Origin: Parcubacteria group bacterium
Lineage (GTDB): Bacteria > Patescibacteriota > Minisyncoccia > Phycocordibacterales > 21-14-all-47-15
Direction: 5' to 3'
Assembly: GCA_016181845.1 (NCBI GenBank)
Contig: JACOYO010000003.1
Location: forward strand, 16,185-80,184
Length of the DNA: 64,000 nt
Translations under genes and position numbers: made by a program
In this document: piece by piece, positions 4,638-64,000 of the stretch
Numbering within the stretch: the stretch's first letter is position 1
Layout: the number at the start of each line of letters is the position of its first letter
Notes under the pieces: generated by a model
Seen by the model: only the letters and a program-made list of their open reading frames with translations
What the model was told of the DNA's origin: nothing
Database searches by the model: none

Positions 4638-4669
4638 CCGTGAAGGACCGTCCTTCACGGGTGTTTTTG
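4638..4669 (+). repeat. palindromic hairpin plus T-tract (copy of the gtgaaggaccgtccttcac repeat family)
   Basis: ccgtgaaggaccgtccttcacgg then gtgtttttg. Related copies at 7551-7571 and 59039-59053. Confidence 0.5.
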
Positions 4670-7528: not shown

Positions 7529-7581
7529 AAACACCTCTGTGAAGAGCCGTTTGTGAAGGACCGTCCTTCACAGAGGTGTTT
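7528..7581. repeat. nested palindrome containing the gtgaaggaccgtccttcac repeat, with alternative pairings
   Basis: aaacacctctgtgaag...tgtgaaggaccgtccttcacagaggtgtttt. Either tgtgaag copy can pair with the single cttcaca, so the two hairpins are mutually exclusive. Confidence 0.45.
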
Positions 7582-9573: not shown

Positions 9574-9592
9574 ATGGACATCCGATGTCCAT
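9574..9592. repeat. palindrome atggacat-ccg-atgtccat overlapping the UDG stop codon
   Basis: Core ggacatcNgatgtcc is shared with 63635-63661. Confidence 0.5.
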
Positions 9593-10227: not shown

Positions 10228-10260
10228 ATTTGTATCGTAGCACAAACCAAACATGAATAA

Positions 10261-10309
10261 CTTGGAGGTCGAGACTTGGAGGCTCAACCTCCAAGTCTCG
10301 ACCTCCAAG
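10261..10309. repeat. 49-bp perfect palindrome (22-bp arms) in a divergent promoter region
   Basis: cttggaggtcgagacttggagg-ctcaa-cctccaagtctcgacctccaag. Confidence 0.6.
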
Positions 10310-10396
10310 TGATTGCTCCACATAAAAAGCTGTGCTACACTGCCGGTTTAGATAGAAAGTCTTTTGTCATTATCAACAACAAGATGGAGGAGTGTG

Positions 10397-13589: not shown

Positions 13590-13639
13590 ACTTAGTGGTT
13601 GAACCTCTCAGTGAAAGACTATGCCAGTATACTGGCATA
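13590..13639. repeat. composite dispersed repeat: acttagtggttgaacc... palindrome (R2) next to the tatgccagtatactggcata palindrome (R1)
   Basis: The same R2+R1 juxtaposition recurs at 46704-46785. Confidence 0.6.
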
Positions 13640-21748: not shown

Positions 21749-21819
21749 TATACCTAAAATATGACGAATTGTAAATAAACTACACTAAAATTATTAACAT
21801 ATCTTGTCTACTATGCCAG

Positions 21820-21843
21820 TATACTGGCATAGTGAAGATAAGA
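21820..21843. repeat. R1 palindrome copy (actatgccagtatactggcatagt)
   Basis: 24-bp perfect palindrome between sufB and rpoD. Confidence 0.6.
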
Positions 21844-32354: not shown

Positions 32355-33599
32355 TTATATATTTTTATTTTGCATTCTTCGCTTTCGATGAAAACTTATG
32401 GCAAACCGATGGGCTTCGGCATTTGCAAAGAGGATATCAGCTTCGTGCCGTATCGCGAGCACGCGGTCGCCGATGATTTTTTTCGGGCGATGACGCTCGT
32501 CTTTGACCACGCCGACCACAGGGATTGCCACGCCAGCCGAAACAAGCGCGTGCTTCGCCGCATTCACTTGCGCGGTTCCGCCGTCAACAACAATCAAACG
32601 TGGCAGTGGCCACTCGGCATGCGCAAGCCGTCGCGAAAGAATTTCTGACAGCGCGCGCGTATCATTCACCCCTTCAAAACTCTTTATATTAAATTTCCGA
32701 TACTCATTTTTTTGTGCCTCGCCGCCCTCAACAACTGTCATCACGCCAACAGACGCTGAACCTGAAAAATGCGCCACGTCATACGCTTCTATTTTGAAAG
32801 TAGAATATGAAAAGTTGAGAGTCGGCGTATTTTTGATAAGAGAAACATCTTGAATATGTTTCAGCGCAAAAATAGTTTTTTTAATTTCATGCGCGCGTTC
32901 AAATGCGCGGTGTTTTGCCGCTTCTCGCATCTCCCGCTCCAATTTTTTAATAAGCATGCCTTTTTTTCCTTCAAAAAAAAGTTTCAGATTTTGTATGATT
33001 TTTGCGTATTCTTTTTTTGAAATCGCTCCAGTGCATACGCCAGGGCATAACCCTATTTGAGTATTAAAACAGGGCTTTTCTTGCCTAAGACGGCATACAT
33101 CGCGAAATGGAAAAATTTTTCTCACAATTTTCAACGCTTCTCGAAGCTGGTTGCCATATGTAAAAGGACCGAATACGTCTTTGACTTGGACGTCGGGTTT
33201 CCAAGTTAACTTGGAAACCCGACGTCCAAGTAGTTCACGTTCCCGCGCCAGAAGCACTCGCGGAAAATCTTCGTCGGTAATGACGACATAATTAAAGCTT
33301 TTGTCGCTCTTTTCTTTTGAATTGTATTTCGGTTGGTGTTTTTTTATCAGCGCCGCTTCAAGAATGAGCGCTTCAAGCACTGAATCGGTTTCTACCACGC
33401 GCACATCACGCGCTTGTTCGAGCATCTCCGCAATAATTGGCCCGCGGGCGCTCATGAGATCCGACGAAAAATAACTTCTTATCCTATCACGAAGCGATGT
33501 CGCCTTACCGATATACAAAATATCTTTTCGCGCGCCCAAAAACTGATACACTCCAGGCGTATCCGGCAAATTTATTTTATTTAGTCGATTTTTTTGCAT
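32355..33599 (-). CDS. uvrC: excinuclease ABC subunit C, short form (GIY-YIG plus RNase-H-like endonuclease domain, no C-terminal (HhH)2)
   Basis: N-terminal GIY-YIG (PGVYQFLG...ILYIGKA) and a C-terminal VVDGGTAQVNAA... domain. 414 aa. Overlaps the uvrA stop. Confidence 0.8.
   Translation of the reverse strand: MQKNRLNKINLPDTPGVYQFLGARKDILYIGKATSLRDRIRSYFSSDLMSARGPIIAEMLEQARDVRVVETDSVLEALILEAALIKKHQPKYNSKEKSDKSFNYVVITDEDFPRVLLARERELLGRRVSKLTWKPDVQVKDVFGPFTYGNQLREALKIVRKIFPFRDVCRLRQEKPCFNTQIGLCPGVCTGAISKKEYAKIIQNLKLFFEGKKGMLIKKLEREMREAAKHRAFERAHEIKKTIFALKHIQDVSLIKNTPTLNFSYSTFKIEAYDVAHFSGSASVGVMTVVEGGEAQKNEYRKFNIKSFEGVNDTRALSEILSRRLAHAEWPLPRLIVVDGGTAQVNAAKHALVSAGVAIPVVGVVKDERHRPKKIIGDRVLAIRHEADILFANAEAHRFAISFHRKRRMQNKNI
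33185..33230. repeat. 46-bp perfect palindrome inside the uvrC coding sequence, in frame
   Basis: cttggacgtcgggtttccaagtt|aacttggaaacccgacgtccaag encodes LGRRVSKLTWKPDVQ. The cttgga(g/c)gtcg...ccaag theme is shared with 10261-10309. Confidence 0.6.
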
Positions 33600-36225
33600 G
33601 GTTGTTCAATGCCCTCTTGAGATACACTCCGGTATGAGAACCATCTTTCTCCGCCACTTCTTCGGGAGTGCCTTTGGCGACAATCTTTCCGCCGCACGCG
33701 CCTCCCTCGGGCCCGATGTCAATCATGTAGTCGGCATTTTTTATAATCTCCATATTGTGCTCTATCAGCACCACCGTATTGCCGCGGTCTACAAGACTCT
33801 GTAATATCTCAATCAATTTTCGCACATCTTCATAGTGCAGACCCACCGTCGGTTCATCAAGCAGATAAATGGTGCGCTCTGTAAACGGGCGATATAATTC
33901 CGAAGAAATTTTTACCCGCTGAGCTTCACCGCCTGAAAGTGTCGTCGCAGATTGTCCAAGCTCAAGGTATCCAAGCCCAACTTCATTCAAAGACTTGAGC
34001 CGGTCGGAAATTGCCGGAATATCTTCAAAAAAAGCGAGCGCTTCTTCAACCGTCATTTTGAGCACTTCATAAATATTTTTATGCTTGTATTTCACTTCAA
34101 GCGTTTCTTTTTCAAATCGTTTTCCGCCGCACACATCGCACGGCACGTACACCGTCGGCAAAAAGTGCATTTCAACCGCTATTTCTCCGTTGCCTTGGCA
34201 CGTTTCGCACCGTCCTCCTTTTACATTGAAACTGAAGCGTCCTGATTTCCACCCGCGCAAGCGCGCTTCTTCGGTAGAAGCAAAGAGGTCACGAATATGT
34301 GTCCATGCCCCTGTATACGTGGCGGGGTTAGAGCGCGGCGTACGTCCGATTGGCGATTGGTCAATCATCACAGCGCGTCCGGCATATTCCGTCCCATCAA
34401 ATGAAGCGCAGTTAAATACTTCATTGCTTCTATAGCGCCGATCAAACCTCGCCTGCAGATTTTTATAAATAATTTCATACAAAAGAGAAGATTTGCCCGA
34501 ACCTGATACTCCGGTAATCGCTACAAGTTTCCCCAGTGGAACGTCTACATTTATATTTTTAATATTGAATATGTTTGCCCCGCGGATTTTGAGCGAACCC
34601 TTATCGTTCGTGCGCCGCTTTTCCGGAATGGGAATTTCTTTTTCTCCGCGCAGGTACGCAAGAGTGAGCGATTCGCCAGCGCCATTTTCGGGCAATTTTT
34701 TTGCCGTCAATAATTTTTCTAAATGGTCGGCGACGACCACATGTCCGCCGTGCACGCCGGCGCCCGGGCCGATGTCAACGATATAATCGGACGCAAAGAT
34801 AGTATCTTCATCGTGTTCAACTACAATCATTGTATTACCGAGGTCGCGCAAACGTTCAAGTGTTTTGATAAGCCGCGCATTATCACGCTGATGGAGCCCG
34901 ATAGTCGGCTCATCAAGCACATAGAGCGCCCCAACGAGACCGGAACCAAGCTGGCTTGCAAGACGAATGCGCTGGGCCTCGCCTCCGGAAAGCGTATTGG
35001 CGCGGCGGTCAAGCGTGAGGTATTCAATGCCAACATTCACCATAAACGAAAGCCGGTCCATAATTTCACGCACCACAACCGCGGATATTTTCTTTTCCCG
35101 CGCAGAAAGTTTGAACCTGTTGAAAAATTCATCAGCTTCTTCAATAGACATGCCGGTTACCTCCACAATGTTTTTACCGCCCACTCGCACCGCGAGAGCT
35201 TCAGGACGCAGACGCGCGCCATGGCAGGTGTCGCAGAGGTCTTCGCCGAAGAAATGTTTCGTGCCGAGTCCGTTGCATGCCGGGCACGCGCCATACGGAG
35301 AATTAAACGAGAACAACCGCGGCTCAATTTCCGGATATGAAAAACCGTCGTTGGGGCACGCAAATTTTGACGACATTAAAAATTCGCTCGTTTCACGTGA
35401 CTGGTTTTTTGCCGATGTTTGTTTTTTTGAATTGGCAGTATTGAGATTGAAAACAACGCGCACCAATCCTTCCGTTTCATTCATCGTGCGTTCCAATGCT
35501 TCGGCAAGCCGTTCACGCGCGGCTTTTTCGTCATCGTGAAACTCGGAAAAATAGAGTGTGTCTACGAGCACGTCTATATCATGTTTTTTTTGTTTTGAAA
35601 GTTCTATGCGGTCACGCAGATTGTGCATGTTTCCATCTATTCGCACCTTGCTATATCCTTTGCCAAGCAAATCATACAGAAGCTGATAGTATTCCCCTTT
35701 CCGTCCGCGCACCACCGGCGCCATAATGGCGACAGTCGCCGTATCAATAGCCACCTCCATCACTTTTTCTGAAGGCGCGTCTCTAAATTCACGCACTTTT
35801 TCCAGTGTAAAATTCAAAATCTCTTCATTGGAAAGTTTTTTTATTTCTTCTCCGCAAATGAGGCAATACGGTTTTCCGATACGCGCAAAAAGCACCCGCA
35901 GATAATCATAAATCTCGGTGATAGTCGCCACCGTTGAACGCGGATTGTTGGAACGGCTTTTTTGGTCAATAGAAATAGCGGGTGACAAACCGACAATCTC
36001 ATCAACATCTGGCTTTTGAAACTGGCGCAAAAATTGCCGCGCGTACGAAGAGAGCGACTCCACGTACCGCCGTTGCCCTTCGGCAAAAATCGTATCAAAA
36101 GCGAGCGAAGACTTGCCGGAACCGGAAAGCCCCGTGAATACGATCATTTTATTTCGCGGCATCTCAACCGTAATATTTTTCAGATTGTTCGTCCGCGCGC
36201 CTTTTACGATAATTTTGTTGTCCAT
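33577..36225 (-). CDS. uvrA: excinuclease ABC subunit A
   Basis: Two ABC ATPase modules ([10 protein letters not shown] / [10 protein letters not shown]) with LSGGEAQR signatures and zinc-finger Cys clusters. Confidence 0.95.
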
Positions 36226-36244
36226 ACTGATTTATTATCATCTC

Positions 36245-36296
36245 TAATTTTTCCTGCGACTATGCCAGTATACTGGCATAGTCGCAGGAAAAATTA
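36245..36296. repeat. 52-bp perfect palindrome carrying the R1 core (tatgccagtatactggcata)
   Basis: taatttttcctgcgactatgccagta|tactggcatagtcgcaggaaaaatta. It makes the track ORFs 36016..36297(+) and 36244..36432(-) end in the same peptide. Confidence 0.7.
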
Positions 36297-36513
36297 AGAA
36301 ATTAAACAAAAAGCTAAATCCCCCGCTCTTTGCCGTAGAGGGGGTATACCGCGCTTTATATATTGATAACGTATCATCTTTCGACAAAAAAGCAACAGCA
36401 ACAGATGGAGTCATTGTCTGATTTGTCCACACCTTTATTTTTATTTATGCCGGAAAATTGATAGAATAAAAAGACAATCGTAATATACATTCGGTCGAAT
36501 ATTATAAAATTAA

Positions 36514-36723
36514 ATGAGTTCTTTAATAATCAGCATGGATAAAGATAATTACTATACGCTCTCGGCATTCTCATATCTTATTATCGCCGTCGTGTTCGCT
36601 TTTACCATCTTCAACAACGGCAGTGTCGTGATAAATAATTGGCTCTTTCCTGTATGGCTCAATTGGGTAGTCATTCTGCTTTCCGGCTATCTTTCATACG
36701 AGTCGTTCCAAATGAAAAAGTAA
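36514..36723 (+). CDS. small membrane protein (2 TM), hypothetical
   Basis: 69 aa, hydrophobic. Confidence 0.3.
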   Translation: MSSLIISMDKDNYYTLSAFSYLIIAVVFAFTIFNNGSVVINNWLFPVWLNWVVILLSGYLSYESFQMKK

Positions 36724-36821
36724 TCCGCTTTTTTCTATATTAAAAATCGCCTCCTGGCCATGCGCCGCGGGGGCGTTTTTTAATTCTATCTCCCACTCTT
36801 CACATCAAAAAACCTTTATAT

Positions 36822-38861
36822 TTACAAAGGTTCCTCCTTCGTTGTGGATAACTTCTGCAATATCAAAAGTTCATCGCGCAAAAGCGCCGCGGTTTCAAAA
36901 TCAAGGATTTTTGCCGCCGCGTTCATTTGTTTTTCTTTTTCGGTGATTATTTTTTGAAGTTTTTTTGGATTCGCCGCGAATTTTTCTTTATCAATTACAA
37001 GCACCGCATTCACGGCTTTCGCGTGTTCGCTTTGCAATGCTTCGGTAATATCGTGGATCTTTTTCTCTATGGTTTTTGGAGTAATTCCATGTTTTTTATT
37101 ATAAGCAATCTGCAATGCTCTACGGCGATTGGTTTCGCTTATCGCCCGCTCCATGGAGCCAGTAGTAGTATCGGCATAGAGAATAACCCGCCCGAAAACA
37201 TTGCGCGCCGCGCGCCCGATAATCTGGACAAGCGATGTTTCGCTCCTCAAAAACCCCTCTTTGTCTGCATCCAAAATACCGATAAGCGACACCTCCGGCA
37301 AATCAAGCCCTTCCCGCAAGAGATTCACACCGACAATCACGTCAAATTTTCCTTTTCTAAAATCGGTGAGAATTCCGATGCGTTCCATGGTTTTAATTTC
37401 ACTGTGCAAGTATTCGGCTTTGATTTTTTTCTCTTTGAGATACGCACTCAAATCTTCAGCCATTTTTTTGGTGAGCGTCGTCGCAATCGCACGGTATCCT
37501 TTTTTAATTTCTTTTTCCGCTTCGGTAATAAAGTCGGCAATCTGTCCTCGATACTTCCCTTTTTCTATCACTCCGCGCACTTCCACTTCGGGGTCTGTTA
37601 ATCCGGTCGGGCGGATAATTTGTTCAACCACTTGCTTACTTTTCTCGCGTTCATAATTTGCCGGCGTCGCCGAAGTAAAAATTACTTGCCCGATGCGCTT
37701 TTCAAATTCATGAAATTTAAGCGGGCGATTATCCTGCGCCGAGGGCAGACGAAATCCATATTCAACGAGCGTTTTTTTGCGCGCGGCATCTCCTTCATAC
37801 ATGCCGCCGATTTGCGGCACGGTTACGTGCGATTCATCTATGATGATGAGAAAGTCTGGCGTTCCGTCTTTGTGATGCGGGAAATAAGAGAGTAGCGTGT
37901 CGGGCGGTTCTCCAGGCGCTTTGCCAGAAAAATGCCGCGAATAATTTTCAATGCCATTGCAATATCCGACTTCTCTGATAAGGGCGATATCATGATTAGT
38001 ACGACGCTTGAGTCGTTCGGCATCGAGCATCTTGCCCGCCGCTTCAAGTTCTTTCAGCCGCTCTTTTAATTCCGCTTGAATGCTTTTCACCGCGATAGCC
38101 CGGCGTTTTTCATCGGTCACAAAGTGTTTCGCCGGAAAAAGAAAAATCTCCCGCGGCTCACTAATAATACTTCGCGAGATAGCATCTAATTGAATTATGT
38201 TTGTTATCCGCCCGTCCGAAAGTTCCAGACGATAGAGCACTTTCTCATGCGGCGGCATCACCTCAACGACATTGCCAATAGCGCGAAAAGTGCCGGTGGT
38301 TACATCGGCATTAGTGCGTTCATAATAAATCTTGATAAGTTTACGCATCAAGTCGGCGCGGCTTATCCGCGTCTCGCGCGCAATCTGAAGATGTTCTTCT
38401 TTGTATTCTTCCGGGCTTCCTAAGCCATAAATACAAGATACCGAAGCGACAATAACCACATCGCGGCGTGTCAAAAGCGCCTGCGTGGACGCGTGGCGAA
38501 GCCGGTCAATCTCTTTGTTGATTTGCGCGTCTTTTTCAATATAGGTATCGCTTATCGGCATGTACGCTTCCGGCTGATAATAATCGTAGTAAGAAACAAA
38601 ATAATGCACCGCGTTATTGGGGAAAAATTCTTTATACTCTTGTGCGAGCTGTGCCGCTAGTGTTTTATTATGCGCGATAACGAGCGTCGGCTTCCCTATC
38701 GCCGCAATAACATTTGCCGCCGTAAACGTCTTCCCCGAGCCGGTCACGCCCAAAAGCGTCTGGTGGCTCATCCCTTTTTTCAAACCTTCTACGAGCGACA
38801 AAATTGCCTTCGGCTGGTCTCCTGCTGGCTTATATTCACTTCGTAATTTAAACGATTGCAT
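36822..38861 (-). CDS. uvrB: excinuclease ABC subunit B
   Basis: Helicase motifs (GVTGSGKT, DESH), a C-terminal UvrC-interacting coiled coil (…LRDELLILQKL…) and the typical 679 aa. Confidence 0.95.
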   Translation of the reverse strand: MQSFKLRSEYKPAGDQPKAILSLVEGLKKGMSHQTLLGVTGSGKTFTAANVIAAIGKPTLVIAHNKTLAAQLAQEYKEFFPNNAVHYFVSYYDYYQPEAYMPISDTYIEKDAQINKEIDRLRHASTQALLTRRDVVIVASVSCIYGLGSPEEYKEEHLQIARETRISRADLMRKLIKIYYERTNADVTTGTFRAIGNVVEVMPPHEKVLYRLELSDGRITNIIQLDAISRSIISEPREIFLFPAKHFVTDEKRRAIAVKSIQAELKERLKELEAAGKMLDAERLKRRTNHDIALIREVGYCNGIENYSRHFSGKAPGEPPDTLLSYFPHHKDGTPDFLIIIDESHVTVPQIGGMYEGDAARKKTLVEYGFRLPSAQDNRPLKFHEFEKRIGQVIFTSATPANYEREKSKQVVEQIIRPTGLTDPEVEVRGVIEKGKYRGQIADFITEAEKEIKKGYRAIATTLTKKMAEDLSAYLKEKKIKAEYLHSEIKTMERIGILTDFRKGKFDVIVGVNLLREGLDLPEVSLIGILDADKEGFLRSETSLVQIIGRAARNVFGRVILYADTTTGSMERAISETNRRRALQIAYNKKHGITPKTIEKKIHDITEALQSEHAKAVNAVLVIDKEKFAANPKKLQKIITEKEKQMNAAAKILDFETAALLRDELLILQKLSTTKEEPL

Positions 38862-40960: not shown

Positions 40961-40989
40961 TTCACTTAGTGGTTGAACCACTAAGTGAA
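40961..40989. repeat. R2 palindrome copy (ttcacttagtgg-ttgaa-ccactaagtgaa)
   Basis: 29 bp; related copies at 13590-13616, 46733-46755 and 49951-49976. Confidence 0.6.
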
Positions 40990-46703: not shown

Positions 46704-46785
46704 TATGCCAGTATACTGGCATAGTCTTTGTCACTTAGTGGCTCAACCACTAAGTTGATACTGAGAGGTTGAGCCACTAAGTTTG
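46704..46785. repeat. composite dispersed repeat: R1 palindrome (46704-46723), then R2 palindrome (46733-46755), then a partial R2
   Basis: tatgccagtatactggcata ... acttagtggctcaaccactaagt ... ttgagccactaagt. Confidence 0.6.
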
Positions 46786-49950: not shown

Positions 49951-49976
49951 ACTTGGTGGTTAAACCCCCAAGTGAA
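49951..49976. repeat. R2-variant palindrome (acttggtggttaaacccccaagtgaa)
   Basis: Degenerate relative of acttagtggttgaaccactaagtgaa. Confidence 0.45.
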
Positions 49977-63322: not shown

Positions 63323-64000
63323 TCAAACTATCTCTTTCATATCGTTTGTCAAATGAGCGCGGACTATCGTTTCTACCTCACGAGCGTCTTTTGCTTCCAT
63401 CAATTTCGTGCGCAATTCTTTTGCCCCATCAAACCCATTCACATACGCTTTGTAATGTTTTTTCATAATGGCAAAATTTTTATGCGCGCCGAGTTCTTTT
63501 TCAAAAAGTTTTGTATGCTCAACCATCACACGAAGTTTTTCTTCAATTGTAATCTCTTTTTGAATTTCCTTTTGTTTCGATAAACCTTGCGATATATCGC
63601 AAGGTTTTGATTTTGATTTTTTATCATCAGTCAGAATGTTGGACATCGGATGTCCAACATTTGCGAAAAGCCACGGGTTGCCGAATATTGCGCGTCCAAA
63701 CATAACACCGTCGGCGCCAGTCGCGCGCGCTTTTTCTTTAGCGTCTGCCATGTCTTTCACGTCGCCGTTTCCGATGATGAGCGCGCCAGTTCCCTTCGCA
63801 AGATCCACCGCACGCGCAACCCGATCCCACTGCGCCGGCGCTTTTGACATTTCTTTTCTCGTGCGCGCGTGAATCGTAAGCGCGGCGATACCGGTTTCCA
63901 AAAGTGCCGGAATCCACGCTTCCGTTTCGTCTTTGTTGTAGCCCACGCGCGTCTTAACCGACACCGGCAAATCACCGGCGCCCTCTTTTGCGGCATAAAT
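63323..64000 (-). CDS. dus: tRNA-dihydrouridine synthase, C-terminal part (5' end beyond window)
   Basis: ...VKTRVGYNKDETEAWIPALLETGIAALTIHARTRKE... is the Dus TIM-barrel and FMN region. Frame is open to the window edge. Confidence 0.75.
   Translation of the reverse strand: MYAAKEGAGDLPVSVKTRVGYNKDETEAWIPALLETGIAALTIHARTRKEMSKAPAQWDRVARAVDLAKGTGALIIGNGDVKDMADAKEKARATGADGVMFGRAIFGNPWLFANVGHPMSNILTDDKKSKSKPCDISQGLSKQKEIQKEITIEEKLRVMVEHTKLFEKELGAHKNFAIMKKHYKAYVNGFDGAKELRTKLMEAKDAREVETIVRAHLTNDMKEIV
63635..63661. repeat. 27-bp palindrome inside the dus coding sequence, in frame
   Basis: aatgttggacat-cgg-atgtccaacatt encodes NVGHPMSNI. Its core ggacatcNgatgtcc is shared with 9574-9592. Confidence 0.55.

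Follow-up and report, generated by a model that had tools for sequence, protein, structure and literature searches.

How does a long, perfect palindrome come to lie within the reading frame of a protein-coding gene? The question is raised by the gene uvrC of a Parcubacteria group bacterium, encoded on the minus strand at positions 32355–33599 of a DNA stretch of 64,000 nucleotides (contig JACOYO010000003.1 of assembly GCA_016181845.1; in the following, "the window" denotes this whole 64-kb stretch). The gene encodes a protein of 414 amino acids whose Pfam domains are GIY-YIG, UVR and the UvrC RNase H-like domain, and an identical protein is annotated from a metagenome-assembled genome of the Parcubacteria group. 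Positions 33184–33231 of the gene form a perfect palindrome of 48 bp, consisting of two 24-nt arms without spacer around the centre GTTAAC. The original prediction, made from the letters of the window alone, had reported it at 33185–33230 (cttggacgtcgggtttccaagttaacttggaaacccgacgtccaag); the palindrome is real, and perfect pairing reaches one further base on each side. The chance expectation of a palindrome with 24-bp arms is ~2e-10 per 64 kb (64000 x 4^-24). The reading frame is maintained, as had been claimed, with codons 124–138 of uvrC corresponding to LGRRVSKLTWKPDVQ. Two copies of a 23-nt hairpin unit, inverted relative to each other, make up the palindrome. In our assessment it probably arose by template-switch doubling of an ancient hairpin that already resided in a permissive loop of UvrC, and not as an inserted element.

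The tolerance of coding DNA for such a sequence, also part of the original prediction, is reflected in its location: the palindrome lies in frame in a segment predicted as coil with low confidence (residues 125–138, with a predicted local distance difference test score, pLDDT, below 50 at residues 126–130). The underlying AlphaFold model is of moderate quality (mean pLDDT 75, predicted template modelling score 0.41, input alignment of 28 sequences), and no solved structure spans UvrC residues ~100–260. Among relatives, the length of this loop between the GIY-YIG domain and the next domain varies from ~5 to 50 residues.

Origin of the two arms

Arm 1 is located on the 5' side of the mRNA (33208–33231, minus strand), encodes L124–L131 (LGRRVSKL) and contains the 23-nt unit ACTTGGACGTCGGGTTTCCAAGT, which runs from 33231 down to 33209. 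The unit follows the pattern ACTTRG-N11-CYAAGT, comprising a 9-bp stem and a 5-nt loop. We aligned the window protein with 27 UvrC orthologs (61–87% identity) and compared the DNA of the nearest ones codon by codon. The motif ELLG-xxxSK-L is conserved at the site of the palindrome, 8 of the 15 palindrome-encoded residues align with conserved ortholog residues, and the window protein is only 3–5 residues longer than its nearest relatives. At the DNA level, arm 1 is identical to the same codons of ortholog L002 at 20 of 24 positions, and to those of L006 at 18 of 24. The 23-nt hairpin itself is found in register in six orthologs with identities down to 62%, namely L002 (ACTTGGACAtcggaTGcCCAAGT), L005 (ACTTAGGGGttctaCCCCTAAGT), L006 (ACTTGGACGtccaaCGTCCAAGT), L168 (ATTTGGAGGcaaggCCTCCAAAT), L169 (ACTTGGAAGctcaaCTcCCAAGT) and L167, the last with a 6-bp remnant. 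In L001 the hairpin is shifted by a 12-nt upstream insert and its stem is extended to 14 bp; L003 and L004 have none.

Substitutions within the stem are mirrored across the orthologs, and some of these compensatory changes alter the encoded residues (L005 has R for G and P for S). In a comparison of nine sequences, 91% of the cells are paired and 5 of the 9 pairs have changed on both sides, a result that none of 500 shuffles matches and that collapses when the positions are slid. In the window, arm 1 is partly decayed as a hairpin, with 2 of its 9 stem positions unpaired. The conserved protein motif, the close DNA match to L002, the in-register hairpins and the covariation together argue that arm 1 is ancestral. 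As judged from these alignments, a hairpin unit at codons ~123–131 of uvrC predates the split of orthologs that are 62–87% identical; arm 1 is orthologous to this resident unit, and the 15 residues do not constitute an insertion. The proposal that residues ~123–137 were inserted is therefore not borne out: the palindrome does lie in a predicted coil loop, but the comparison with orthologs shows no clean insertion of 15 residues.

Arm 2 (33184–33207, minus strand) encodes T132–Q138 (TWKPDVQ) and the first two bases of V139. All of its 24 positions agree with the reverse complement of arm 1, including the two that do not pair within arm 1, and no counterpart is found in any of the orthologs compared. 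No other copy of the 24-nt arm with up to 3 mismatches exists in the 64-kb window, where the 48-mer is likewise unique. Within the window, arm 2 can thus have been copied only from arm 1, and local copying is the simplest reading.

The sequence of L002 provides an approximation of the starting state. L002 reads CCC AAG TTA AAA AAT ATG AAA GTT AAA, with TTAA and AAGT both already there, and the window reads TCC AAG TTA A/CT TGG AAA CCC GAC GTC CAA GT/C AAA (slashes delimit the putatively copied segment). A template switch simulated from an L002-like ancestor yields the observed sequence exactly; the simulation used a spacer of 10 nt, one base short, and with the real 11-nt spacer of L002 the net change is calculated as +9 nt. 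According to the proposed mechanism, a nascent strand ending in ...CCAAGTTAA would, during replication, have paired its self-complementary TTAA with the same-sense strand, copied 22 nt backwards (CTTGGAAACCCGACGTCCAAGT) and returned to the proper template at the AAGT microhomology just 5' of GTC AAA. Approximately 11 ancestral nt would have been swapped for 20 new ones, and since the net gain of 9 nt amounts to 3 codons, the frame would be kept. The doubled product would have survived because it sits in the length-variable coil between GIY-YIG and the next domain.

The microhomologies at both junctions are a signature of template switching. A further feature of such events is a source that is present, and a copy that is absent, in relatives: the six orthologs with the in-register hairpin have a homolog of arm 1 without arm 2. 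In E. coli, template switching makes quasi-palindromes perfect (PMC7202029), and template switching can create and maintain stems (PMC8794818, PMC5453318). A variant in which an L006-like hairpin received a 24–26-bp palindrome in its loop ranks below the doubling model, since it needs an extra downstream deletion of 16 nt and ignores the match of arm 1 to L002.

Parallel cases and dispersed units in the window

A second before-and-after case, cleaner than that of uvrC, is provided by the gene for a tRNA-dihydrouridine synthase (Dus; 63323–64000, minus strand). Its linker carries a lineage-specific insert of ~33 aa that is missing from the closest ortholog L171 and partly present in L170, and this insert holds two further in-frame coding palindromes. 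The first palindrome (63582–63607, minus strand) is perfect over 26 bp and encodes KPCDISQGL. L170 reads AAA CCT TGC GAT ATA TCG AAA GAA and the window reads AAA CCT TGC GAT ATA TCG CAA GGT TTA TCG AAA, that is, L170 plus the 12 nt CAAGGTTTATCG, which consist of the reverse complement of the upstream AAACCTTG and a repeated 4-nt ATCG. This gain supplies the right arm, extends the palindrome from 10 bp to 26 bp and adds 4 codons. On the strength of the alignment, L170 preserves the state of Dus before the inverted-copy insertion. The second palindrome (63635–63661, minus strand, 27 bp, encoding NVGHPMSNI) is present in L170 with a mirrored pair of substitutions (AAT...ATT versus ACT...AGT).

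Similar products are found in the UvrC loop of other lineages. L020, L037 and L071 have a palindrome centred on CGATATATCG, with mirrored differences between species; in L020 the left arm is homologous to the palindrome-less L032 and the right arm is new. Because mirrored substitutions are seen in Dus (window and L170) as well as in L020 and L037, the arms of coding palindromes appear to evolve in concert. Inverted dimers of small hairpins are found at 46733–46782 of the window and in uvrC of L133, L121, L125, L099 and L027. The second hairpin copy in these dimers is always inverted, which fits template switching and not slippage.

The 23-nt unit is also dispersed over the window: its pattern has 6 matches in 64 kb, compared to 0.09 expected. 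The original prediction had pointed to a motif common to the uvrC palindrome and a second one at 10261–10309, and both are indeed built on the unit. The second palindrome spans 51 bp (10260–10310; 23-nt arms, 5-nt loop) around the unit ACTTGGAGGctcaaCCTCCAAGT (10274–10296). The motif CTTGGASGTCG has 5 matches, all within these two palindromes (1.2 expected), which also hold 8 of the 12 occurrences of ACTTGGA. The 51-bp palindrome probably lies in the spacer between divergent genes for a UDG-family and a class II tRNA-synthetase-like protein. An ATG at 10323 would put it in frame at the N-terminus of the UDG-family open reading frame (ORF); a start at 10242, which leaves the palindrome intergenic, seems more likely because the Pfam domain begins well downstream. 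Further copies are ACTTAGTGGttgaaCCACTAAGT (40964–40986), which precedes the start of a DHFR-domain gene by ~25 nt; the intergenic dimer at 46733–46782, whose two 23-nt copies are 91% complementary, are separated by a 4-nt spacer (the degenerate partner is at 46760) and have the same architecture as the uvrC palindrome; and ACTTGGTGGttaaaCCCCCAAGT with one mismatch (49951–49973), located between convergent genes. The four to five copies in the window other than that in uvrC are probably all intergenic, in divergent as well as convergent spacers. The copies differ from each other at 7–9 of 23 positions, and the uvrC hairpin of L001 is identical to window positions 10274–10296 at 22 of 23.

Such a family raises the alternative that the palindrome is a mobile element, either of the type of repetitive extragenic palindromic sequences (REP) and their doublets (REPIN) or a miniature version of the Rickettsia palindromic elements (RPE), in which the unit or its inverted doublet moves by transposition and has in one case entered uvrC in frame. 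We regard this as unlikely. The excess of units, the recurring inverted-doublet architecture and the insert in Dus, a true insertion relative to the closest ortholog, are what such an element would offer, but arm 1 is orthologous and in register across the 62–87% identical orthologs, and arm 2 reproduces the defects of arm 1, for which the window provides no other template. The divergence between the unit copies is unlike that of a recently transposing family. The units start with ACTTRG and end with CYAAGT, with no GTAG or CTAC at their ends, and no target-site duplication is found at the uvrC palindrome. No transposase, Y1 (RAYT) or integrase domain is present among the ~58 ORFs scanned in the 64-kb window, and the unit pattern has no match in a viral contig collection.

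The window contains other repeated palindromes. The 20-bp perfect palindrome TATGCCAGTATACTGGCATA occurs four times (13620–13639, 21810–21833, 36245–36296 and 46704–46723). One of these forms the core of a longer perfect palindrome (52 bp), whose end lies 20 nt upstream of where uvrA starts; the remaining copies are located near sufB and a SIMPL/DUF541 gene. We considered an SOS box upstream of uvrA and rejected it, as sufB and SIMPL/DUF541 do not form an obvious repair regulon; TATGCCAGTATACTGGCATA may serve as an operator or represent a further palindrome family of which one member is extended. Near-identical intergenic hairpin pairs, in tandem or dispersed, are found at 2119–2163/2208–2238 and 4678–4702/4724–4750, at 4638–4660 and 7552–7572, and at 9574–9592. 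The core TGGACATCnGATGTCCA at 9574 is shared with a Dus coding palindrome and the uvrC hairpin of L002.

The genomic context of uvrC is that of nucleotide excision repair (NER). The genes uvrB, uvrA and uvrC are contiguous on one strand (32355–38861, minus), and the end of uvrA overlaps the start of uvrC by 23 nt, an arrangement that suggests a single NER operon. The window UvrC is short: it stops just past the RNase H-like endonuclease domain, without the (HhH)2 DNA-binding domain, and its ~120 closest homologs (P0002–P0120) all have lengths of 399–450 aa.

Palindromes across Paceibacteria uvrC genes

We surveyed 166 uvrC-centred loci from genomes and metagenomes, with 134 recognisable uvrC genes (176 kb). 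These genes harbor 76 perfect hairpins whose stems measure 9 bp or more, compared to ~7 expected. For stems of at least 10 bp the density is 0.306 hairpins per kb in uvrC, 0.054 in uvrA and 0.070 in other ORFs, with 0.0086 expected by chance; the uvrC hairpins are thus 4–6 times denser than those in uvrA or the other ORFs of the same loci. The 76 hairpins are concentrated at window residues 120–139, 170–179, 260–269 and 350–359, which correspond to the four coil segments predicted by the AlphaFold model (125–138, 163–176, 248–268 and 355–360; besides residues 126–130, pLDDT is low at 185–190 and 253–265). The density of flanking palindromes does not correlate significantly with the presence of a uvrC hairpin (p = 0.057).

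The hairpins are mostly perfect. When the uvrC hairpins with 12 or more paired positions are sorted by mismatches, 25 have none, 5 have one and 4 have two, and codon-shuffled genes yield 0, 0.4 and 0.6 in the same classes. The mismatches in the one-mismatch hairpins comprise no G.T and three A.C, among few (8) imperfect hairpins. This perfect-or-absent pattern argues for DNA-level conversion or rapid turnover over selection at the RNA level. The template-switch process, which creates, extends and re-perfects inverted repeats, seems to be at work widely in these genomes and would explain why coding palindromes are almost always perfect.

The same data bear on the possibility that the palindrome is a selected nucleic-acid structure, such as a hairpin in the uvrC mRNA, a DNA cruciform or a protein-binding site, which for example throttles UvrC synthesis downstream of the overlapping uvrA and was strengthened by the doubling. 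This reading draws on the conserved codon position of the hairpin, whose compensatory changes alter residues, on the recurrence of hairpins at the same four places in many lineages, on the enrichment in uvrC and on the very stable RNA stem (-54.9 kcal/mol for 101 nt around the palindrome, z = -7.5). A strong hairpin in this loop is, however, found in only 18 of the 134 genes, with none in the close relatives L003 and L004, and the hairpin sequences are unrelated between lineages. The stems are strictly Watson-Crick, and the large excess of perfect over imperfect hairpins is not what RNA-level selection would be expected to produce. Units are moreover found in both divergent and convergent intergenic spacers. 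The stem is not followed by a T-run on either strand, which rules out an intrinsic terminator or attenuator. A search of Rfam at gathering and permissive thresholds finds no family for the palindrome, with generic miRNA-precursor models far below threshold; the sole gathering-level match in the window is a tRNA. We consider a selected structure improbable, slightly more so than a mobile element.

An artefact of library or assembly, in the form of an inverted chimera or a fold-back path in the assembly graph, is very improbable. The window UvrC sequence is known from a single assembly, as such an error would have it, but the gene stays in frame on both sides and the net change is a multiple of 3, and a graph error would need two precise strand switches with junction k-mers in the reads. 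Dozens of independent assemblies, produced by different assemblers, show similar in-frame palindromes in this loop, and the Dus protein with both of its palindromes is found on 3 contigs (NCBI, Logan).

The survey also reveals hairpin families that recur across unrelated genomes at non-orthologous places: TGTCAAAG...CTTTGACA, the C/T-rich CCCTCTCC..., GGTTSAACC cores and CGATATATCG centres. Members with shared sequence, with TGTCAAAG...CTTTGACA and CCCTCTCC.../CCCCTCCCC... as examples, are located in coding DNA of L037, L053 (uvrC and uvrA), L063, L024, L098, L099, L117 and L040, and also of L053, L066, L063, L129 and L147.

Several of these observations weigh against a purely local origin by template switching, and some of them speak for a mobile element. 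Hairpin families that recur at non-orthologous sites and across genomes are not explained locally, and neither is the match between the uvrC unit and the intergenic copies, including that of the L001 hairpin. Eight-mers are shared six times more often between hairpins of the same locus than between those of different loci, and an identical palindrome is found in both uvrC and uvrA of L053. Shared hairpin sequences require a dispersal route or a sequence-specific factor beyond a purely local mechanism. In L018 the unit of this loop is offset by ~4 nt and read in another frame, which hints at an independent acquisition. The 4–6-fold enrichment of uvrC over its neighbouring genes is not predicted by a generic mutational process. 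Finally, the ancestor is itself inferred: no allele without arm 2 was found in the same species or genus, identity to the closest relatives is 87% and 77%, and the best match in a metagenome scan for closer ones has 60% identity; the sequence itself comes from one assembly.

In view of both sides, we tentatively raise the possibility that perfect in-frame coding palindromes form a self-maintaining class in Paceibacteria genomes, with families of small hairpin units that spread between loci, are kept perfect by arm-to-arm conversion, grow by inverted doubling and are concentrated several-fold in uvrC. We consider this rather less probable than the local doubling in uvrC itself. A literature search on palindromes in coding genes of Parcubacteria/Patescibacteria (candidate phyla) found nothing relevant.

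Known palindromic systems and implications

The closest mechanistic counterpart are quasi-palindrome and template-switch mutations, as described by the Ripley model, the quasi-palindrome hotspots of E. coli and the four-point template-switch mutation model. As in these, the new sequence is the exact reverse complement of an adjacent one with microhomology at both switch points, a single event accounts for a cluster of differences to the orthologs, and perfect stems are made and repaired. Described cases are mostly conversions of a few bases, or are located in non-coding or RNA genes (PMC7202029, PMC5453318, PMC8794818), whereas in uvrC an entire hairpin of 23 nt is doubled within the frame of a protein gene, and products of this kind are common across a bacterial clade, where they persist.

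The coding palindromes in mitochondria of Nematomorpha resemble the pattern across lineages. They reach up to 284 bp over conserved protein regions and are perfect or absent, with lineage-specific gain and loss and concerted arms; template switching or repeat conversion has been proposed, with a possibly parasitic character (PMC6649704). Common to both systems are perfect inverted repeats in translated genes, their binary presence, the concerted arms and the lineage-specific gains and losses, as well as the proposed mechanism and the possibly parasitic character. In contrast to Nematomorpha, the palindromes described here are 20–50 bp long, are located in variable coil segments of bacterial genes and include dispersed sequence families.

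RPE have a length of ~100–150 bp and code for a conserved peptide, and comparison with orthologs shows them as clean insertions (PMC10969869). The original prediction had recognised their pattern in uvrC, and there are likenesses: palindromic DNA is located in frame in housekeeping genes, adds peptide at fold-compatible places and, as far as the 23-nt unit is concerned, belongs to multi-copy families. The assignment nevertheless fails on size, peptide and mode of insertion. The palindrome totals 48 bp with a 23-nt unit; one of its halves is ancestral gene sequence, it adds 3 codons net, and different copies encode different peptides. No conserved peptide is encoded, as the other copies in the window are definitely or probably intergenic and the unit of L018 is read in another frame. 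It is the 23-nt unit that is multi-copy; the 24-nt arm and the 48-mer are unique in the window. The broader suggestion that this genome carries mobile palindromes tolerated in coding DNA is upheld as far as in-frame tolerance is concerned (uvrC and twice in Dus), but not as to an inserted element in uvrC, where arm 1 is orthologous and arm 2 probably a local copy.

REP elements are extragenic palindromic units of 20–40 nt with a conserved GTAG head and a cognate Y1 transposase (RAYT), and their REPIN doublets are reportedly mobilised by RAYT transposases. The window shares with them short palindromic units in many copies and inverted doublets that form a larger hairpin (46733–46782 and 33184–33231). 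Unlike REP, the copy considered here and its orthologous counterparts are located inside uvrC, the GTAG head is absent and the doublet spacers measure only 0–11 nt; as to the transposase, no Y1 (RAYT) gene is found among the ORFs of the window. The uvrC palindrome is thus not an RPE, and neither its location nor its head motif is that of REP/REPIN.

The window provides a natural before-and-after record of template switching that produces in-frame protein insertions, with 3 codons gained in UvrC and 4 codons in Dus, and links a replication error mechanism directly to the evolution of protein loops. It appears that a large group of uncultivated bacteria generates perfect palindromes in its coding DNA, tolerates them there and keeps them perfect. 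For annotation, we note that such hairpins, through their mirrored substitutions, produce a signal like the covariation by which functional RNA structures are called. The observations raise the questions which hairpin-processing functions these reduced genomes lack, whether the palindromes behave as selfish DNA and why uvrC is favoured. If a self-maintaining class of coding palindromes does exist, it would be a bacterial counterpart of those in Nematomorpha mitochondria, and might be tied to missing hairpin-processing nucleases or to the control of UvrC expression.

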